In this document: one piece after another, positions 9,533 through 38,094 of the stretch
How the letters are laid out: each line of letters starts with the position of its first letter
Numbering within the stretch: the stretch's first letter is position 1
Assembly (NCBI GenBank): GCA_963708185.1
Contig: OY970195.1
Coordinates: 704,001-768,000 of the forward strand
DNA length: 64,000 nucleotides
Origin: Candidatus Peregrinibacteria bacterium
Lineage (GTDB): Bacteria > Patescibacteriota > Gracilibacteria > UBA1369
Direction: 5' to 3'
The notes under the pieces: model-generated
The model's input: only the letters and a program-made list of their open reading frames with translations
What the model was told of the DNA's origin: nothing
Databases searched by the model: none
Made by a program: the position numbers and the translations under genes

Positions 9533-9570
9533 AGATTCAAAAATCCCTGTGCGACTGGAGCCGCACCGGG
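9533..9570 (-). terminator. Intrinsic terminator closing the putative ncRNA operon
   Basis: Minus strand CCCgGUGCGGC-UCCA-GUCGCACaGGG followed by AUUUUU. There is also a T-rich tract on the + side. Confidence 0.7.
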
Positions 9571-9596
9571 TAAATTTTTATTTTTGAATTATATTC

Positions 9597-9873
9597 AGAC
9601 CTCCCCCGTATCTTCATGGAAACTCATGATGCCAACCACAACAAGATGAAATGCTATGAACAATTACATGTGAGTGTCGTTGGACAAACGTTAGATACCT
9701 GTTCTTTTCATGACATCAAAACCCATCACAATAAAGACAAGCACGGGAACAATTCGCTGGGCGCTGTTGTTACCGACCATGAGATTCCGAGAAAATCGAG
9801 GGAGGGAGCTGTCTTGAGGACTGGGGGTCAAAAATAAGTGACCAATGCCCAGTCCGAAGACAGCTCTCTCCCG
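9597..9873 (-). ncRNA. Putative structured ncRNA unit 3
   Basis: 5' hairpin 9872-9800 (GGGAGAGAGCUGUC/GACAGCUCCCUCCC), CCCAG 9761-9757, UGAUGGG 9728-9722, long-range helix ~9804-9764 with ~9642-9601. Confidence 0.6.
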
Positions 9874-9922
9874 CTTTTCAACGGTACGTTCTTTCAAGGA
9901 TCATGACTGAAATTTCTTCAGT

Positions 9923-10303
9923 CCCCCTTAAACTCTACGAGACAAATTTCAAACATCTGAACACCTCGGAAATTCTTAGTTCCCTCAGTAGTCACTTACC
10001 ATATTCCGTTTCCAAAATATGACAGTACCTCTCTCACGTATCGGCACATCACGTCTGACCACAGAACCGAAGTCCTACAGACAAAACAGGAGGCGTCGAC
10101 AAATGAAGTCCAACCTCTTCCCTCTACAGCCTGGTCTTTTAGACCCGCCAAGCGAAAAGGATGAGCACGCCAAGAACCTGGGGGACTCTTGGACGCGGTT
10201 TTACTCTCCATCACGCAAAGTCTAAGGAGGAAGCTGCCAAAGATCCCAAGTATGAAACCCTTTTTTCATCAATACCTAAGGTCTTTGACAGCTTTCTCCC
10301 GAG
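9923..10303 (-). ncRNA. Putative structured ncRNA unit 2
   Basis: 5' hairpin 10300-10226, CCCAG 10182-10178, UGGCGGG 10150-10144, cUUCGg and GAAA tetraloop hairpins, 17-bp closing helix 10230-10214 with 9939-9923. Confidence 0.62.
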
Positions 10304-10350
10304 CTTTTGCCGGAAAGTTGTTTTTTGTTTTTAAAGAACGTTTTATTTTT

Positions 10351-10714
10351 ACTCCCGAGTAGAGGGGTCGGATATCGAACCCAGAAGAAACGATAAAATC
10401 TCTTCCGTGGATAACCATAAGAGTGACCGAAGTCATAATTATGATGTATCCGAGGTGTCTCGGCGTATAAAGTTTGATCCAAGCCGAAGCTCGAAACAAA
10501 ACTTCATGGAGTCGAAACATATCATTCAATCTCTCTCTTAAATCACTTGACCTCCAAGCCCATCAAGCGTTGAAGAAAGGCATCGGGACGAGTTCTGGGA
10601 GAACTGTCCAAATAATCCGATCCTTCAAACCCGGGAGGAATCTGCCTAAGACGCTAGTACTGAAGCATGGTGGGAACTTGCAGTAACCAGGATTTCAGGC
10701 AGGTTTCTCCCGAG
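10351..10714 (-). ncRNA. Putative structured ncRNA unit 1
   Basis: 5' hairpin 10714-10630, CCCAG 10599-10595, UGAUGGG 10565-10559, two cUUCGg hairpins (10492-10481, 10435-10424), closing helix with 10373-10352. Confidence 0.62.
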
Positions 10715-10791
10715 ATTGAGGTGCGCAGGCAAATGGTTTTGTACCTTTGCCGTGCGTTTTTCTTGTTGTCAAAAAATCACTGTTTCATTAA

Positions 10792-10821
10792 ATTCTATCA
10801 CATAAACAGAATATGTGTCAA
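10792..10821 (-). promoter_or_regulatory. Sigma70-type promoter driving the ORF-less transcript
   Basis: Minus strand TTGACA (10821-10816), 18-nt spacer, TGnTAGAAT (-10 at 10797-10792). Predicted TSS ~10785. Confidence 0.75.
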
Positions 10822-12618: not shown

Positions 12619-12658
12619 AGGAGGTTCGTTACCATATTGTGTAACGAACCTCCTTTTT
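12619..12658 (+). terminator. Intrinsic terminator after helicase
   Basis: 14-bp stem AGGAGGTTCGTTAC/GTAACGAACCTCCT followed by T tract. Confidence 0.8.
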
Positions 12659-12707
12659 GGTAAGTTATTATCATCGTAACCGTTTTTATCTTTCTCTCTT
12701 CGCCTCT

Positions 12708-13286
12708 ATGATGAAAAAAACTTCCTTCGCTGCGCTTTTGGCTGTCTTGTTTTTGGCAGGATGCCAGCAGAACGTATCTCCTTCCTCCGTTACCCAAAAC
12801 GTCACTCCCGCACTAAAGACCCAGCAGGTATCTGCTACGCTTGAAATCCAACCGAGTGGGGCAATGAACGAATCCATAATGCCCGTTGAAACTTCGATCA
12901 CCCAGACGGATCAACCGTTGATCGCAAGCGGAACCATCGACGGTTCGATGGGCTATCCGGCGGAAACTATTCCTCCCTCAATCATCGTCTGCGCCGATAA
13001 TACCTCCACAAAAGCGACATTCTGTACCTCCGAACGCATCAACAGTGACCAATACACTTCACACGTCGGCTATCAGCTCACGGTTCCAGCCGGAAACTAC
13101 AATGTTTATGAAAAGATCTCCGAAGGAACCATCGGGAGTTTTGATTCCACCTATAAAGCCTATTATTCCGACTTCGTCGTCTGCGGGGAGAAAAACACCT
13201 GCACGTCGCATAATCCGGTAGCGGTCCAGGTTCAAGCGGGACAAACGACCTCTGGCATCTCGCCCACCGACTGGTATAACCTGTAA
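12708..13286 (+). CDS. Hypothetical lipoprotein
   Basis: MMKK plus hydrophobic stretch plus LAGC lipobox. Cys pairs in the C-terminal domain. Confidence 0.8.
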   Translation: MMKKTSFAALLAVLFLAGCQQNVSPSSVTQNVTPALKTQQVSATLEIQPSGAMNESIMPVETSITQTDQPLIASGTIDGSMGYPAETIPPSIIVCADNTSTKATFCTSERINSDQYTSHVGYQLTVPAGNYNVYEKISEGTIGSFDSTYKAYYSDFVVCGEKNTCTSHNPVAVQVQAGQTTSGISPTDWYNL

Positions 13287-13308
13287 TCCGCACGATTAGA
13301 TTTTCCGG

Positions 13309-14091
13309 TTAGATCTTCTCGAATGGAAGCTGCAGAATGACCGCCATGTTTTTAGGGTCCATCGGTTTGCGATATTTTATTTTGGGATTCTTGTAGATGT
13401 TGATGATGTAGATGGTTGAGTCTTCCACTGCGCCATGCTCAAAGAGCAGCTCTTCTTCATCGGCGATGTCCTGAAGTTTTTTGATAAGATCGTTGAGATC
13501 GATGCACATGATTTTGTCGAGAGTGTCTTCAAGTTCTTCTGCGTCTTCCGGCGCCAGTGAAAGCGTAATGACGATATCATCGGGAACTTCTTCGGGGGCG
13601 ATGATGCTATTGACCTCACGAATGACCGGAGGTGTTTCCTTGAGTGCTGCAGCACTTGCCAGAATCTCCGCAGCAGAATCACGGACTTTTGCGGAAATTG
13701 GCGGCGGTGGAAGCGTTTTTGCCTGTGGTTTGAGGCAAGATTCGGGAGCTTTGGCAGTCGGTGAATATTTTTCCATGAGCGTTACATGTTCCGGAGCAAA
13801 CTGATCATCGCAGCATCCCTCGAGATGGGAAAGGCTCATGGTACGGGTTCCTTCCTTGTATTCAACCTTGGCCAGACAAAAATTCTGGAGATATTTGAAG
13901 GTTTTGTAGTCTTCGTGAGCCGGGGTTCCGGGAATACGCGGGTCCACTCCTTCAAAGTGCAGGAAAATTTCCCATCCGGGTTTGGACGGATCGATGTCTT
14001 CAATATCGCAATCTTTGACATCCGGATTTATCAGGCGGTCAAAAAGCTTATCTATCTCGAATCCGTCTGAATTGTCATTGTTGTTTTCCAT
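13309..14091 (-). CDS. Hypothetical acidic protein
   Basis: 260-aa ORF with AT-rich upstream region. No motif recognised. Confidence 0.65.
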   Translation of the reverse strand: MENNNDNSDGFEIDKLFDRLINPDVKDCDIEDIDPSKPGWEIFLHFEGVDPRIPGTPAHEDYKTFKYLQNFCLAKVEYKEGTRTMSLSHLEGCCDDQFAPEHVTLMEKYSPTAKAPESCLKPQAKTLPPPPISAKVRDSAAEILASAAALKETPPVIREVNSIIAPEEVPDDIVITLSLAPEDAEELEDTLDKIMCIDLNDLIKKLQDIADEEELLFEHGAVEDSTIYIINIYKNPKIKYRKPMDPKNMAVILQLPFEKI

Positions 14092-14258
14092 ACCTTGCGC
14101 AGCTATAAGTGTTCAACCTTCCAAAGGTGTTGAATTTTAACAATAATTAAGCTATTCAGTCAATAGTCGTTATTTCTTGGCTTTCTGTTGACATTCCCGC
14201 GAAAAAAGGTGTAGTTTTTGGCTAGAAAAGGCCACCAACATCCCGTAACGACACGCTT

Positions 14259-14486
14259 ATGGGAACCGTATGGACCATTATCGTCGTCATCAACCTTTGC
14301 TCACTGCTCTTTTTGTTCGCCTACATCAAGAGGCTTTTTGGCTATGCCCGGAAATATCGCATGCCTGAGTCAAAATATACCCTGCTTTTTGGGGGAATTA
14401 ATTTGCCCCACGTGGTTTTTGCTTACGTCTCCTCCGCAATCGCCTTCGCGGTGTTTTCGGTTATCTTCTTTAGTTTCGCCCGATGA
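14259..14486 (+). CDS. Small two-TM membrane protein
   Basis: 75 aa with two hydrophobic segments. ATGA overlap with the next gene. Confidence 0.6.
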   Translation: MGTVWTIIVVINLCSLLFLFAYIKRLFGYARKYRMPESKYTLLFGGINLPHVVFAYVSSAIAFAVFSVIFFSFAR

Positions 14487-15128
14487 ATCATGAAGTCCAG
14501 AACAACAAGGATCTTCACTTTAAAGGTCAATACGCCGGAGAGGTTGTCATTGCCTTTTTCCGTGGCCCACTGGATCACCCTGATGCCCAGCATCGTGGTC
14601 CACATTTTTTTCGTGGTGGTGTTTTTTGTCGTCATCGCGACGTTTTCCACACCCATTCTCGCGTTCATTGCCACTCCGTTGGGAGAAATCGTTTTCGTTC
14701 TGAGCATTTTCCTCATCACCTACGCCGTTCACAGTTTTTATCTTAAACTCATCAATCATTTTCTTAACTCTGTGATCATTACCAACTTCCGCATCGTGGA
14801 AAACCAAAAAATTATTTTCATCAAGGATCTTCAGGTTTCAGTGGACATGAGAATGATCCAGGACGTCAAAAAGGAACAGAACGGCATTTTGGAAAACCTG
14901 CTCAATTTCGGTGAACTCATCATCATGCTTTCTTCATCCTCGGATATCCGTGTCATCAAGTTCGTTCCAAACCCAAATTTCCATTTCAGGCTCATCAACC
15001 GCATCAAACTCGAAAATTTGCACAAACAAGCCGAAGAGAAAGTACAGTCGAGAAACCATCAGTCGATTCTCTACGAAAATTTCTCATCATACCGGACGAG
15101 GGAGAAACACGCAGAACATGAAGCGTGA
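14483..15128 (+). CDS. Membrane protein with bacterial PH-like domain (apparent frameshift ~14565)
   Basis: MNHE...FKGQYAGEVVIAFFR joins HWITL...IITNFRIV...IQDV...LLNFGELII if one G at ~14564 is removed. Confidence 0.7.
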
Positions 15129-15180
15129 CTTGTTTTCAGCCCTTATCAAGGCTAAAATCAACACGTTTTTGTTTTTCCGC

Positions 15181-15956
15181 ATGAAAAAATCCTTCTCTTT
15201 CGTTTTTATCGTCGTCATCATGGGGGCCTCAGGACTCGGCTACTATTTTTACAAACAGATCCAGTACAACAAAGAAAACGTTCCCGCCGCAGTGAGCATT
15301 GCTCAGCTTGAACAGAGTCAGAAGGCGTTTCAAGCCCTGGCGCAAGGCAGTTCCCAGGTACAGACCCAGCAAAACATCCAGGTTCCTCCCGAACTGAACA
15401 TCAAGATGACGTTTTATCCACAGGCACCTTCCGGCGACTGGAGCGAGCCCTGGCAGGAGGCTTGCGAAGAAGCCAGCATTCTTCTCGTTGCCAACACCTA
15501 CTACAACCACAACTGGACGCGCCAGCAGTTCGGTGATGAAATTTTGAAACTCGTGGATTGGGAAAACAACACTTTCGGCGACTACAAAAACACCAACGCC
15601 AAACAGATCGTGCAGATGCTTCAAGATTATCTGGGGCGAAAGCCGTCATCCACGATAATCCGACCTACAGCGATGTCCAGCAGGCCCTGACCAGGGGCCA
15701 TCTGATCGTGATGACGTTCGCCGGGAAAGAGATCGGCAACCCCTTTTACAGCAACGGCGGACCGACCTACCACGCCATGGTCATCAAAGGGTATAAAGCG
15801 GGGCAGAAAATCATTACCGAAGACGTGGGCACCAAGCGCGGAGAGGACTATGTGTACCCCTGGAAGGTGCTCGACGGCGCCCTCCATGACTATACTGTCC
15901 CGATCGACAGCGGAGCGAAGGAGATGATTGAAGTGATCCCTCCGACCAATTTTTAA
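15181..15956 (+). CDS. C39-like peptidase, N-terminal TM (apparent frameshift ~15635)
   Basis: QAP...ACEEAS (Cys) in the first frame. YHAMVIKGY (His) and TEDVG (Asp) in the second frame. The break lies in a G run. Confidence 0.75.
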
Positions 15957-15966
15957 ACAGTTCTCG

Positions 15967-17277
15967 ATGCCGGAATCTGAATCTACGCTCGCGCCCAATT
16001 TCTCGCTCAACGTGCTCGGCAGGAAGATCGCCTTTTCCACATTGGTCCAGTACGCGGGGAAGGCCGCCCAGCTCGTGCTGGCGGCCGTCGGCATCAAGTT
16101 GATTTCCAATTTTTTGAGTCAGAACGGGTACGGGGTCTATTCGGCCATCAGCGAGTATGCCCTGTTCTTTTCCACGGCGGCGAACCTGGGAATTTTCGGC
16201 AACGTGGTAAGGATCATGGCCGACCGTCCGCGCGACGGGAGCGTTTTCTTGAGTTCACTCGTTTTGCGCATCGTCACCGCTCTGTTGTTTTTCGTGACCG
16301 CTGTGGTGATCGTGCTCAACAACGGCAGCGGAAATGTTTTTATCGTGGGAACGGCGCTGTTTTGCGGAGGTCTGTTTTTCGACTACGTGACGTCGGTCTG
16401 CGACGGCATGCTCCAGTCGAATTATCTCATGGGAAGAGCAACCTTCGCCCTCGTCGCTGGAAAACTCGTCGATGTGTGCATGGTTTTTTGGATCATCAGA
16501 ACGTTCAGCGGAGGCATTGATACCGGCGGGATGTTTTTGGTGTTCGGCGCGGTACTTGCAGGAAGTTTCGTTACCGCCGCGTTGAGCCTGTATTTCGTTT
16601 CGAGGAAAATCGAATGGAGTTGGGCCGTGAACCCGCAGATGATGATGAGAATTTTCCTGGTGAGTCTGCCTTTCGGCATCATCAACATCATCAACAACCT
16701 TTACTTCCGTTTTCTGCCGGATTACCTGGGGCACCAGTTCCTGGATGACAAACATTTTGCAAGTTTCAGCCTCTCTTTCCGCATCGCCCAGGTTTTGAGC
16801 CTGGCGTCGACCTTCCTGATGTTCTCGGCGCTCCCCGGGCGCACGGAATACATTGAGGAGGGGCATATTGAAAAAGCCCGGAAGCTTTACGCAGTCATCC
16901 GCAAGATCCTCGTGGCCGGCGGCCTGGCGCTCGTTGTTTTCGGTTCACTGCTGGGACCGTGGGTTTTGACGCTTTTAACAAAGGACAAATACTATCTGCC
17001 TGAATTCTGGTTCGTACTCCCGATGATGCTGGTGCTGGCCGCGATTTCCTACGGCTACGACCTGGTGCTTCTGACGTTGTTCGCGGCCAATGAGGATGTC
17101 TGGTTCATGAAGCGCGAATTTGTGGCGCTGGCTCTTGCGGGAATATTCTTTGGTGCGCAGTTTTTGGTTTCAGACACCACGTTGCGGCTCGTGCTTATTT
17201 TACTCGGGGCTATCGCAGGAGAGGGGTTCATGGTGGTTTCGGGTTCGTTGAAGCTGAGAAAAGACGTCCTGGAGTAG
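15967..17277 (+). CDS. Oligosaccharide flippase (Wzx/MOP family)
   Basis: About 12 TMs, and a YGVYS...NLGI pattern near the N-terminus. Confidence 0.8.
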   Translation: MPESESTLAPNFSLNVLGRKIAFSTLVQYAGKAAQLVLAAVGIKLISNFLSQNGYGVYSAISEYALFFSTAANLGIFGNVVRIMADRPRDGSVFLSSLVLRIVTALLFFVTAVVIVLNNGSGNVFIVGTALFCGGLFFDYVTSVCDGMLQSNYLMGRATFALVAGKLVDVCMVFWIIRTFSGGIDTGGMFLVFGAVLAGSFVTAALSLYFVSRKIEWSWAVNPQMMMRIFLVSLPFGIINIINNLYFRFLPDYLGHQFLDDKHFASFSLSFRIAQVLSLASTFLMFSALPGRTEYIEEGHIEKARKLYAVIRKILVAGGLALVVFGSLLGPWVLTLLTKDKYYLPEFWFVLPMMLVLAAISYGYDLVLLTLFAANEDVWFMKREFVALALAGIFFGAQFLVSDTTLRLVLILLGAIAGEGFMVVSGSLKLRKDVLE

Positions 17278-35910: not shown

Positions 35911-38094
35911 TTAGAACTTTCTCCTGAAAGGTTTTTTGGGCGGGCGCGACGCAATGCCGCCATCGTCGTGTGCACCTTCAGGTTTAGGAAGCAGAACCTT
36001 ATGGGAAAGGTTGTAGCGGCCCTGATCGTCGATCTCCATGAGTTTGACCTTGAGGGTGTCTCCGACCGATACGACGTCTTCTACGCGGTTCACGTGGGCC
36101 CAGGCAAGCTGTGAAATATGGACAAGGCCTTCTTTTCCCGGAAGGAATTCAACGAATGCACCGAAGTCCATGATCTTGACGACTTTTGCTTCGAACTCAT
36201 CGCCGACCTTCGGCTGATAGGTGAGACGTTTGATCCAGGCAATGGCTTTGTTGCCGCTTTCCTGATCCTTGGCCGTGATGCAGACGAGACCGTCCTGTTC
36301 GATGTCGATCTCCACTCCGCACTCTTCCGTGATCTTCTGGATGGTTTCTCCACCCTTGCCGATGACGACCTTGATGAGTGCCGGATCAATCTTCATATCC
36401 ATGATGAGCGGAGCGTACTTGGAAAGATGCTCGTTGGGTTTCGGAATGGTCTGGAGCATTTCGTACAGGATCTGTTCGCGGGCCTGCTTGGCTCGTTCCA
36501 ATGCTTCGCGCATAACTTCAATGGTCAGTCCTTTCACCTTGATGTCCATCTGAAGGGCGTTGATACCATCGTGAGTCCCGGTGACCTTGAAATCCATGTC
36601 ACCGGCGAAATCTTCCATGCCCTGGATATCGGTGAGGATCTTATAACCTTTCGTGATGTCTTTGTCTTTGGAAACGAGACCCATGGCGATGCCGGCAACG
36701 GGTTTCTTGATGGGAACGCCGGCGTGCATGAGTGAAAGCGTCGATCCGCAGACCGAAGCCATGGAACTTGAACCGTTACAGCTCATGATTTCCGAAACGA
36801 CCCAGATGGTGTACGGAAAATCTTCCTTGGAAGGAAGGACCGGGATGAGTGAGCGTTCAGCAAGATCGCCGTGACCGATGTCGCGACGGGAAGGACCGCG
36901 GAGAGGTTTTACTTCACCGACGGAATACGGCGGAAAGTCATAGTGGTGCATGTAGCGCTTGGTGATGTCTTCATCCATGGTGTCCACGATCTGGGCGGAA
37001 CCCGGAGAGCCAAGCGTGGTAATGCTCAATGCCTGGGTTTCACCGCGTTGGAACAGGGCGGAACCGTGCGGTCTCGGCAATAGTCCGACCATGCATTTGA
37101 TGGGACGGATTTCGTCGACCTTGCGGCCGTCGAGACGCTGTTCTTTTTCAAGAATATTGGCGCGCATGTTCTGTTCGAGCATCTTGTTGAGCACTTCATT
37201 GAGATGCCTGGTGCTCAACGTTCCGGCTTCGATCTGCTCTTTGTACTTTTCGGCGAGTTTATCTTCCAAGGCGTGGATTTTCTCCTTCACATCACCTTTG
37301 GTTTTTCCGAAGACCTGGTCCATCATGTCTTTGCTGATGGTCTCTTCCACGGCTTTCTTGGCTTCTTCAGGAATTTCCACCATGGTGGGGGTGCGTTCTT
37401 CCTTGTGGTAGACCTTGGCGAAATCTTCCTGGAGAGCGCAGATCTTTTTGATCTCTTCGTGCGCCATCTGAAGAGCCTTGAGTATGATGTCCTCTGAAAC
37501 TTCTTTGGAAGCGGCTTCAACCATAGTGATGGCTTCAGCCGTGCCGGCGACCACAAGATCCAGGCGGCCTTCTTCGACCTGTTTGTAGGTCGGGTTGATG
37601 ATGAGTTTTTCTTCGTCGCCTTCTTTGACGAGGCCCATGCGTACCGCACCGACCGGTCCCTGGAAAGGCATTCCGGAAATGCTCAATGCCGCCGAAGCCG
37701 CGATCAAAGCGGTGGTTGCCGGTTCGACTTCAAGGTCGGCCGACAGTACGGTGCAGATGATCTGAACATCGTTGACGACCCCTTTCGGGAAGAGCGGGCG
37801 GATGGGACGGTCAATGAGACGTGAGTTCAGGATGGCTCTTTCCGAAGGTCTGCCTTCGCGTTTCACGAAACGACTGCCTTTGATTTTTCCCGCGGCGAAA
37901 TATTTTTCCTCGTAATCGACCATCATGGGGAAGAAGTCCGTGCCTTCACGTACTCCGCCCATCATGGCGCTGGCGAAAACCACGGTGTCGCCGAGGGAAA
38001 CCGTTACAGCCCCATGGGACTGGTTCGCCAAGAGTCCGGTCTCGATTTTAAGTTCGCGACCGGCAAGATCCATTGAAAATGTTTTCTTTTCCAT
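35911..38094 (-). CDS. pnp: Polyribonucleotide nucleotidyltransferase
   Basis: Two RNase PH domains (DRPIRP, NGSSSMAS, GDMDFKV) plus KH and S1. Confidence 0.98.
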   Translation of the reverse strand: MEKKTFSMDLAGRELKIETGLLANQSHGAVTVSLGDTVVFASAMMGGVREGTDFFPMMVDYEEKYFAAGKIKGSRFVKREGRPSERAILNSRLIDRPIRPLFPKGVVNDVQIICTVLSADLEVEPATTALIAASAALSISGMPFQGPVGAVRMGLVKEGDEEKLIINPTYKQVEEGRLDLVVAGTAEAITMVEAASKEVSEDIILKALQMAHEEIKKICALQEDFAKVYHKEERTPTMVEIPEEAKKAVEETISKDMMDQVFGKTKGDVKEKIHALEDKLAEKYKEQIEAGTLSTRHLNEVLNKMLEQNMRANILEKEQRLDGRKVDEIRPIKCMVGLLPRPHGSALFQRGETQALSITTLGSPGSAQIVDTMDEDITKRYMHHYDFPPYSVGEVKPLRGPSRRDIGHGDLAERSLIPVLPSKEDFPYTIWVVSEIMSCNGSSSMASVCGSTLSLMHAGVPIKKPVAGIAMGLVSKDKDITKGYKILTDIQGMEDFAGDMDFKVTGTHDGINALQMDIKVKGLTIEVMREALERAKQAREQILYEMLQTIPKPNEHLSKYAPLIMDMKIDPALIKVVIGKGGETIQKITEECGVEIDIEQDGLVCITAKDQESGNKAIAWIKRLTYQPKVGDEFEAKVVKIMDFGAFVEFLPGKEGLVHISQLAWAHVNRVEDVVSVGDTLKVKLMEIDDQGRYNLSHKVLLPKPEGAHDDGGIASRPPKKPFRRKF

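Follow-up and report, generated by a model that had tools for sequence, protein, structure and literature searches.

A gene-free stretch of about 1.25 kb (positions 9540-10821, minus strand, of the 64,000-nucleotide window analysed here) holds a promoter, three paralogous units and a terminator, and it is rather probable that this arrangement is a stable-RNA operon in the style of those for ribosomal RNA, serving a new family of RNAs that act through their shape. In each unit a conserved spacer hairpin, P1, precedes a multi-helix body (Table 1). Judged by sequence comparison, the bodies form a new RNA family whose members, in the genomes searched, occur in a single family of CPR bacteria labelled Peribacteria or Peregrinibacteria; what is new is the RNA family and its architecture, not the mechanism. 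The locus combines covariation above controls with transcription signals and the absence of a coding signal, the generic marks of a structured non-coding RNA. The original prediction had read it as a polycistronic array of paralogous non-coding RNAs, a reading now supported by the covariation, the flanking promoter and terminator, the blank Rfam search and the non-coding signal, and every feature that it listed was found at the position it gave.

Table 1 Features of the RNA locus in window coordinates.
Feature	Position	Strand	Details	Basis
Sigma-70-type promoter	10792..10821	(-)	TTGACA, 18-nt spacer, TG-extended TAGAAT	11 of 12 matches
boxA-like leader motif	10765..10779	(-)	UGAUUUUUUGACAAC	begins 12 nt past the -10 hexamer
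Spacer hairpin P1-A	10634..10711	(-)	GGGAGAAACCUG ... CAGAUUCCUCC	sequence, fold, repeat position
Body A, paralogue of B	10352..10638	(-)	L1 CCCA 10599..10596, L2 UGGG 10562..10559	model R1 and alignment A1
Spacer hairpin P1-B	10226..10300	(-)	core helix 10294..10282 with 10243..10231	covariation
Body B	9919..10230	(-)		alignment A3; R1 193.9 bits
Loop-loop pseudoknot of body B	10144..10182	(-)	L1 CCCA 10182..10179 with L2 CGGG 10147..10144	covariation
Spacer hairpin P1-C	9801..9872	(-)	conserved UUGGUCAC...UGACC tip	cross-genus conservation
Body C, shortened paralogue	9601..9806	(-)	L1 CCCA 9761..9758, L2 UGGG 9725..9722	alignment
Intrinsic terminator	9540..9570	(-)	stem 9566..9549, 7 pairs (5 G-C), then U run

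The locus was predicted to lack a credible ORF, and positions 9540-10821 indeed contain no conserved reading frame; the longest internal ORF encodes 86 amino acids from a TTG start. Within the genus, just 5-8 of 33-47 indels are divisible by three and the variable columns are spread evenly over the codon phases (112/124/112). Protein coding was rejected on the ORF lengths, the indel pattern and this even split. The expected minus-strand bias is apparent in the fold energy, which is 93 kcal/mol better on the minus than on the plus strand (-466.3 vs -373.5 kcal/mol), in the many conserved G.U pairs (columns 170-180 are GU in 19 of 19 sequences) and in four cUUCGg loops seen by eye in the sequence. 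The near-consensus promoter and the terminator were both present as foreseen. The promoter is conserved across five genomes of the genus and was detected, as TTGAC...TAnnnT, at 25 of 26 related loci; a 3.5-kb scan returned 6 promoter-like sites compared to 2.8 ± 1.5 in shuffled sequences. The terminator stem shows compensatory changes within the genus. The whole locus is 77-79% identical in all four of the congeneric genomes compared, with promoter, units and terminator all kept.

The strict form of the boxA-like leader motif, UGAU-N-UUU-R-A-M-A, lies 7-21 nt past the -10 element in 12 of 25 loci, whose genomes are related to each other, and a shorter form is found in 9 more; its chance rate in the source genome (G000) is 0.0002 per 60-nt stretch. 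In the rRNA leaders of the organism itself, UGUUCUUUAACA(U/A) is found about 180 nt ahead of 16S and 141 nt ahead of 23S. The locus motif differs from this rRNA-leader motif at 1-3 positions, with an extra U in G000, and two genera have a form that agrees with the motif of the 23S leader in 12 of 13 positions. We infer from the sequence that the motif may have an antitermination role. Leaders of the boxA type have also been reported for CRISPR arrays.

The three units are marked by the motif GACAGCTYTCTCCCG (plus strand) at 9859, 10287 and 10698, and their GGGAG starts lie at 10711, 10300 and 9872. The motif spacing of 428 and 411 nt bears out the predicted distance of about 410-430 nt; the repeat core is 15 nt long with 80-93% identity, and its period is 411-428 nt. 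The proposed hairpin base, RRSCUG paired with CAGMUY, is present in the units but is not fully paired in unit A, which has a second mismatch (C.A). The A-U/G-C compensatory change claimed for this base was recovered at column pair 21-119, which is AU in 15, GC in 3 and GU in 1 of 19 orthologues. The core helix of P1-B comprises 13 pairs, 8 of which are changed on both sides, and 96.4% of its cells are paired. The notion of conserved hairpins with diverged interiors held for the hairpins but not for the interiors, as the units are homologous well past the hairpin (alignment A1, 63% mean column identity). P1-C is 94% identical over 77 nt to its counterpart in another genus. The third "unit" consists, in most other genera, of the hairpin alone, and there the P1-C hairpin followed by a U run constitutes the terminator; a hairpin with the P1-C tip is kept in three of the five examined family genomes that lack bodies. 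P1 is probably a spacer and not a part of the abundant RNA.

Body B is present in every genome that carries the RNA family. Its fold is branched and consists of 15 helices including the pseudoknot. The closing helix P2 (10229..10218 with 9935..9924) is joined by 13 further helices. In an alignment of 19 sequences, one per genome, from 14 genera, the paired share of the 1933 cells is 94.5%, compared to 39-51% when the partner strand is slid, and changes on both sides are seen in 60 of 102 pairs, compared to 16-30 with the partner slid. None of 500 shuffles reached the observed value on any of five covariation measures, and RNAalifold scored 59 of 98 pairs as compensatory. Across 45 covariance-model matches the paired cells amount to 91.2%, and both sides have changed in 48 of 52 pairs. 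Helix P11 (10021..10000) is capped by a GNRA loop in 19 of 19 sequences, which between them use seven different loop sequences.

The pseudoknot columns were unpaired in the model used to fit the alignment. In 41 sequences, the key pair of the pseudoknot is CG in 28, AU in 8 and GC in 5, and it is never unpaired. The two middle pairs are CG in 40-41 sequences, and the fourth is AU in 32 and something else in 8 (A.C in G000). The CCCACC tip of P1 was considered as a partner of the L2 sequence GGUGGG and rejected in favor of L1, which fits better: in G027, L1 and L2 changed together while the P1 tip stayed CCCACC. The closing-helix strand covaries with its partner in the body (columns 125-441, for example, are CG in 10 and UA in 6 sequences), and the same strand also covaries with an alternative partner in the leader (column 133 with leader column 8 is GC in 9 and AU in 7).

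Body A matches model R1 with 51.3 bits (E 5.5e-11). For body C, whose closing helix is CCUCCCUCG.../...CGGGGGAGG, the model does not reach E 0.001. The approximate sizes of the bodies are at least 280 nt for A, 300-330 nt for B and 190-215 nt for C.

The locus was then compared to known RNA families using the 4227 models of Rfam 15, with both gathering-score and E-value (up to 10) searches. At the gathering score, tRNA-Phe alone passes in the window; at E up to 10 there are 15 other matches, to microRNA, snRNA and lncRNA models, with 14.7-28.5 bits against gathering scores of 34-117. Ten homologous loci likewise gave nothing beyond tRNA. No match to OLE, GOLLD, ROOL, HEARO or raiA was found at the locus at E up to 10; Rfam 15 presumably includes these families, together with omega RNA. 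The source genome, a single contig with 99% completeness, has its one RNase P RNA (RF00010) at C1:185828-186179 (175.6 bits), outside the window, its tmRNA (RF00023) at C1:1209539-1209952 and its 16S and 23S rRNA elsewhere. Neither 6S RNA (RF00013) nor SRP RNA (RF00169, RF01854) was matched at the locus or anywhere in G000, although the genome-wide SRP blank is weak because the first-look filter missed SRP RNA in two of 14 control genomes. The assertion that the locus is not a tRNA, tmRNA, RNase P, SRP or 6S RNA is thus upheld, and the novelty that an Rfam hit could have removed stands. The hallmarks of CRISPR, TIGR and ToxI-type arrays are absent, given the long period, the homologous segments and the lack of an effector gene alongside. 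Base-pairing of body B to stable RNAs was rejected, as no perfect complement of at least 10 nt was found in 16S rRNA, the 23S region, RNase P RNA or tmRNA, where shuffled sequences gave 1.6 matches; the bodies resemble neither base-pairing regulators nor cis-regulatory elements. A literature search on Peribacteria noncoding RNA and Peregrinibacteria structured RNA, with supplements (and any motif lists in them) outside its scope, turned up no description of this RNA, and the accessible part of bioRxiv 10.64898/2026.10.21.760802 makes no mention of it.

Searching with a covariance model, as the original prediction had proposed, located the RNA in a single family of bacteria labelled Peribacteria or Peregrinibacteria, where 27 of 36 genomes have it; there was no match in 128 genomes from 18 other families of the order and no credible one in 150 other genomes drawn across the class. 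A 24-bit match to G280 in the class-wide set was taken as spurious because it lacks the L1/L2 domain. The nine family genomes without a match are 91-99% complete, which implies that the RNA is dispensable or replaceable. The number of units differs between genera and ranges from 0 to 4, and the locus is found once per genome, with its synteny fixed. The hairpin pattern was also seen in two viral contigs, neither of which matches R1, and a phage origin was rejected. Seventeen metagenome loci were also found.

The neighboring genes encode an SNase, a NUDIX protein, a cation-efflux (CDF) protein, Lon and a DEAD-box helicase. ARAGORN reports just three tRNAs, and nothing else, within the window. 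The tRNA-Phe gene is a conserved neighbor; it is transcribed divergently, and the locus lies on its 5′ side. The DEAD-box helicase was dismissed as a partner after tblastn found it at 0 of 30 related loci, including 8-kb loci of the same genus. The SNase is found in 27 of 36 family genomes and is often adjacent to the locus, but its presence does not track the RNA: G009, G023 and G034 have the RNA and no SNase, the adjacent orthologue is missing in G004, and an SNase paralogue occurs in three genomes that lack the RNA. An obligate partnership was rejected on these grounds, and neither the conservation of neighbors nor SNase presence across the 36 genomes revealed a partner protein.

The stretch is partly present in 18 sequencing runs, 13 of which are on record as RNA. 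The source organism itself is in none of them (all shares are 0.04-0.17), and the contigs over the locus belong to relatives at about 90-98% identity. Four metatranscriptome runs, under three study codes, have the bodies as individual contig records of 192-338 nt, one for each body. The contigs span 10352-10629 and 10366-10635 for body A (depth 49-62), 9919-10220 and 9926-10190..10220 for body B (depth 15-467), and 9601-9792 and 9605-9788 for body C (depth 12-14). Stops from different studies fall within 0-10 nt of each other (9601/9605, 9788/9792, 9919/9926, 10629/10635), and no RNA-library contig bridges two bodies. In run X1, record B has loose ends on both sides that we take to be library adapter. 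Contig cover is absent from the P1 hairpins, the linkers, the leader and the flanking SNase and DEAD-box genes, which we do not read as these being absent or silent. At the 5′ side the contigs begin 3-18 nt within the closing helix; the true ends may be some bases beyond the contigs, or else the mature RNA is missing a portion of this helix even though it covaries. With their ends uncertain, the contigs give no 2-nt 3′ overhang at the closing helix of the kind that RNase III would leave. The discrete products of 200-380 nt that had been predicted find a counterpart in these records, but as the contigs carry no information on strand, true ends or precursor, separate records with shared stops are a weak hint of processing into discrete RNAs.

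Taking these observations together, we suggest the following course of events. The strong promoter and the boxA-like leader would drive the synthesis of one untranslated precursor of about 1.2 kb, carrying the three paralogous bodies with a P1 spacer hairpin ahead of each. Each body closes on itself via a long-range helix (CCUCCYUAAGCUU with AAGUUUAGGGAGG) and folds into two multi-helix domains held by the loop-loop pseudoknot, with a GNRA tetraloop in addition. The 5′ strand of the closing helix has two alternative partners, either the leader strand just upstream of P1, which extends P1, or the 3′ end of the body. The P1-extending pairing may form first, during transcription, and then be replaced by the closing helix, and a nuclease cut near the junction of P1 and the closing helix would free the bodies as separate stable RNAs.

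As to what the bodies do, they most likely act through their three-dimensional shape: either they bind protein, as scaffolds or decoys, or they assemble into particles by themselves. That they are RNA subunits of a lineage-specific machine (an oligomeric RNA particle, a ribozyme or an RNP) made like ribosomal RNA is a tentative and rather doubtful proposal. Regulatory decoys in the manner of 6S or CsrB/RsmZ, soaking up RNA polymerase, a translational regulator or the anti-Shine-Dalgarno tail, seem unlikely to us, even though each unit has SD-like strands (GGGAGG) as well as anti-SD-like ones (CCUCC), CCUCC is paired with GGAGG in the closing helix, RNA-library depth over the bodies reaches 467 and RF00013 finds no 6S RNA in G000; tandem paralogues are also usual among decoy RNAs. 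The GGGAGG strand, however, is paired in the covarying closing helix, the branched, pseudoknotted fold is unlike the 6S rod with its central bubble, and the most conserved loops are CCCA/UGGG and GNRA rather than repeated GGA motifs (GGA occurs 8 times by eye in about 302 nt against about 5 expected). It also speaks against a decoy that no stretch complementary to 16S, 23S, RNase P RNA or tmRNA reaches 10 nt. Two further proposals, on a par with each other, appear somewhat less likely still. One is an RNA-only assembly, a homo- or hetero-multimer formed by kissing loops; recent cryo-EM work has reportedly revealed multimers for ROOL, GOLLD and OLE. The covarying L1:L2 contact could equally be made between molecules, covariation being blind to this distinction, and the matched loop specificities of units A and B can differ within a genome (G024 combines GCC/UGGC in A with CCCA/UGGG in B). 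A conserved GNRA loop is a further point in favor, as is the adjoining tRNA gene, ROOL and GOLLD often lying beside such genes. Against multimers of this kind, there is no Rfam homology to ROOL, GOLLD or OLE even at E up to 10, and the bodies are two to four times smaller. The other is a ribozyme that excises itself from the precursor or acts on another substrate, as might be suggested by the body-by-body records with shared stops, the compact pseudoknotted fold with invariant loop nucleotides and the alternative pairings at the proposed cutting region. Yet no Rfam ribozyme family matches, self-cleaving or other, the invariant nucleotides sit in mutually pairing loops and not in junction cores, the ends are uncertain, and protein nucleases account for the processing equally well.

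The remaining two explanations fare worse. A very divergent SRP or 6S RNA missed by the Rfam models, an idea encouraged by RF00169, RF01854 and RF00013 all being blank across a nearly complete genome, is very improbable: the locus is blank even at E up to 10, the SRP blank carries the filter caveat given above, and three paralogues combined with absence from 9 of 36 family genomes are unlike an essential universal RNA. That the locus has no function of its own, whether as the remnant of a decayed gene, as a selfish repeat or as a genomic island next to a tRNA gene, is scarcely credible. The variable unit number and the adjoining tRNA gene point in that direction, but compensatory changes in 60 pairs largely refute it, and promoter and terminator are conserved, the copy number is one per genome with synteny fixed, the two viral contigs with the hairpin pattern have no R1 match and the bodies occur in RNA libraries. 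Moreover, genomic islands usually integrate at the 3′ end of a tRNA gene, whereas the locus is on the 5′ side of tRNA-Phe.

Several known systems offer parallels to the locus. Like bacterial rRNA operons, it has one strong promoter, an early boxA-like motif, several structured untranslated RNAs in one operon, helices in the spacers on the borders of the RNAs, apparently separate RNA products and a neighboring tRNA gene. It differs from them in that its RNAs have no similarity to rRNA in sequence or model, are paralogues of each other and are missing from a quarter of the family genomes, and in that the tRNA gene is on the opposite strand. With OLE, GOLLD, ROOL, raiA and HEARO/omega RNA it shares many covarying helices, pseudoknots, GNRA loops, the lack of an explanatory adjacent gene and a function unknown at discovery, and some of those RNAs also lie beside tRNA genes; the bodies, however, are smaller (190-330 nt), are arranged as tandem paralogues behind spacer hairpins and are found in one CPR family. 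In size range, paired 5′ and 3′ ends and RNA-library presence they resemble 6S RNA, RNase P RNA, tmRNA and SRP RNA, but they match none of these models, do not fold like 6S RNA and are not universal even within the family. With CRISPR, TIGR and ToxI arrays the locus shares the alternation of a conserved hairpin with a second kind of segment along a single transcript, which would be cut into units. The period, however, is about 410-430 nt and not 18-80 nt, the segments here are conserved, homologous and structured rather than variable guides, and the locus has no cas, tas or toxin gene beside it.

A new large RNA with a well-supported fold is a rare find, and RNase P RNA, tmRNA, 6S RNA, OLE, ROOL/GOLLD and the omega RNAs each opened a line of biochemistry. 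To our knowledge, almost nothing is known about non-coding RNA in CPR bacteria. For the RNA described here, a structural model is at hand, with about 100 pairs (60 of them compensatory), a loop-loop contact supported by covariation and a GNRA loop, and the layout of tandem paralogues behind spacer hairpins with two alternative pairings is unusual. The narrow range of the RNA, which occurs in one bacterial family and is missing from a quarter of it, limits its general importance and at the same time eases comparative tests; the RNA is also readily amenable to work in vitro (transcription, probing, cryo-EM and pull-downs). Should the bodies prove to be subunits of a machine, they would join rRNA, RNase P RNA, tmRNA and 6S RNA as a new class of major stable RNA, and one that may reach the levels of housekeeping RNAs in episymbiotic bacteria with reduced genomes.

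The minus-strand operon had been described correctly in the original prediction, with its promoter, terminator, three units, four cUUCGg loops and no long ORF. The recurring motif is present in the window in three copies (spacings of 428 and 411 nt), and the three units (A, B and C, each a spacer hairpin, P1, followed by a multi-helix body) can be aligned past their opening hairpins with a mean column identity of 63%. The longest reading frame inside the region is 86 amino acids, and the minus strand folds better than the plus strand by 93 kcal/mol. The source genome, G000, is a single contig of 1.44 Mb. The whole locus is found in all four congeneric genomes (G001–G004) at 77–79% identity, with promoter, units and terminator retained. 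Within the genus, only 5–8 of 33–47 indels are divisible by three, variable columns split 112/124/112 by codon phase, and the longest open frames change strand and frame between genomes. The RNA locus is conserved and non-coding. A small leader hairpin (CGCACGGCAAAGG...CCAUUUGCCUGCG, 10715-10747, minus strand), located between a boxA-like motif and the P1 of unit A, is present in G000 and absent from G003 and G004; G001 and G002 carry another sequence at this place.

Features of the RNA operon and its surroundings, in window coordinates
Feature	Position	Strand	Details
RNA operon	10821..9540	minus	near-consensus promoter at one end, intrinsic terminator at the other
Promoter	upstream end of 10821..9540	minus	TTGACA, 18-nt spacer, TG-extended TAGAAT; 11/12 matches
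Terminator stem	9566..9549	minus	intrinsic, then U run
Body B closing helix	10229..10218 paired with 9935..9924	minus	structure from alignment A3
Loop of body B hairpin L1	10182..10179	minus	loop CCCA; same domain as hairpin L2
RNA-run contigs, body C	9601/9605-9788/9792		
RNA-run contigs, body B	9919/9926-10190..10220		
RNA-run contigs, body A	10352/10366-10629/10635		
ORF	12657-13286	plus	no Pfam match at E 0.001
ORF	13309-14091	minus	no Pfam match at E 0.001
ORF	14490-15128	plus	no Pfam match at E 0.001
ORF	15967-17277	plus	no Pfam match at E 0.001

The proposal that the units are structured non-coding paralogues is borne out by covariation in A3, an alignment of 19 B orthologues from 14 genera, on which RNAalifold predicted 98 pairs, 59 of them compensatory. 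In the body B structure, one pseudoknot included, 94.5% of 1933 cells are paired compared to 39–51% with slid partners, and 60 of the 102 pairs change on both sides compared to 16–30; none of 500 shuffles matched the observed value on any of five measures. The second domain of body B has a three-branch core. A GNRA loop caps helix P11 in all 19 sequences and occurs in seven sequence variants. The pseudoknot, a contact of hairpin loops L1 and L2, is clear in 45 aligned matches, divergent members included, of R1, a covariance model that covers the body's first 200 nt from the 5′ end: the key pair is C-G in 28, A-U in 8 and G-C in 5, is never unpaired, and has two invariant C-G pairs beside it. 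Because these columns are unpaired in the model, their covariation was not produced by the model-fitted alignment.

The strand CCUCCYUAAGCUUC, after P1, has two possible partners. One is the body's 3′ end, with which it forms the closing helix (e.g. pair 125-441: CG 10, UA 6); alternatively, it can pair with the leader strand immediately upstream of P1 (pair 8-133: GC 9, AU 7), where GGGAG/CUCCC is pairable in all cases. Compensatory changes occur in both pairings, which suggests that folding or processing follows an ordered pathway.

The leader carries UGAU-N-UUU-R-A-M-A 7–21 nt past the −10 hexamer in 12 of 25 loci and a shorter form in 9 more. UGUUCUUUAACA(U/A), the boxA consensus bound by NusB/NusE, is present in the leaders of both 16S and 23S in this organism, and in two genera 12 of 13 positions of the RNA-locus form are identical to the motif of the 23S leader. 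We infer that rRNA-type antitermination may act on the long untranslated operon transcript. Outside the window, the 16S (G000:C1:372254-373755) and 23S (377947-381062) genes are ~4.2 kb apart and each is preceded by its own boxA-like motif; the rRNA genes therefore look unlinked. A further stretch beyond the window, G000:C1:~901990-902200, has UGUUCUUUGACAA after a promoter-like sequence and is possibly the leader of a different transcript, either non-coding or for ribosomal proteins.

R1 matches 27 of the 36 genomes of the window's bacterial family, none of 128 genomes from 18 other families of the order, and, credibly, none of 150 other genomes sampled across the class; in G000 it finds unit B (194 bits) and unit A (51 bits) and no further copy. 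Scanning one genome per GTDB species for the exact pattern gave 50 stretches; in 16 of them the title names Candidatus Peregrinibacteria, Peribacteria, Gracilibacteria or Patescibacteria. These 16 include all eight two-match stretches, contain the units according to nhmmer (16/16), and coincide in their coordinates with the loci from a separate genome search of the window's own family; the remaining 34, with one match each in unrelated taxa, were taken as chance. The locus has the same order in all genera: a promoter, between one and four units of hairpin and body, and a P1-like hairpin at the end. In most genera this last hairpin forms the terminator together with a U run; in the window's genus a shortened third body and a terminator of its own come after it. 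Unit B, the middle one in the window, occurs in every genome with the family.

In line with the original prediction, no Rfam family matches the operon. RNase P RNA, tmRNA, 16S and 23S are located elsewhere in G000, and a CRISPR-like or ToxI-like array was rejected, as was an antisense to a neighboring gene. A viral link was likewise discarded: two viral contigs fit the hairpin pattern and R1 matches neither. No complement of 10 nt was found in stable RNAs, and no description of the family was found in the portions of the literature searched, one preprint included. Models of SRP RNA (RF00169, RF01854) and 6S RNA (RF00013) had no match anywhere in the 99%-complete one-contig G000, a blank that is possibly false, since the SRP first-look filter failed to detect SRP RNA in 2 of 14 control genomes as well. 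Alternatively, both RNAs may be unusual in this lineage.

On the upstream side, 13 of 19 loci have a divergent tRNA-Phe gene (the remaining loci are short or cut); downstream are SNase, NUDIX, CDF transporter and Lon genes. The DEAD-box helicase, suggested earlier as a possibly related neighbor, is not part of a conserved neighborhood across related loci. Four ORFs of 209–436 amino acids without a Pfam match lie at 12657-17277, and two other genera also have the 436-residue one, at a distance of ~2–3 kb from the RNA locus. In relatives with a short or missing array (L092-L096; L008:~1730-2000), the product of the next gene has an acidic N-terminus followed by a conserved ...YWVQEP... segment. 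At L093 (G025:C4:~35960-36350), tRNA-Phe is adjoined by two extra tandem copies of its first 40 nt within a ~97-nt repeat.

Small parts of the stretch are found in 18 public runs, 13 of them metatranscriptomes. Contigs for comparison came from four RNA runs with three study codes between them, and two of these runs may belong to one campaign; the contigs derive from relatives rather than the G000 strain. Bodies A, B and C each form a separate record of 192–338 nt, with depths of 49–62, 15–467 and 12–14, respectively, and the tRNA is also covered. In one run, X1, record B is flanked on both sides by loose ends that resemble library adapter sequence. Record stops from different studies agree within 0–10 nt, a weak hint of discrete ends in contigs that show neither strand nor exact ends.

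In a tree of 44 units, the A-type units of eight genera share one clade, suggesting that the duplication is old, and in a divergent clade the two units of a given genome group together. Of five genomes in the family that R1 does not match, three retain a promoter and a short hairpin RNA next to tRNA-Phe as the only remnant, and in two nothing of the locus is left. The RNA family is real, expressed and strongly structured, and was found neither in Rfam nor in the literature searched; its tandem paralogues are encoded by a stable-RNA operon that resembles those of rRNA. We favor action through shape, by protein binding or assembly, rather than base-pairing regulation.
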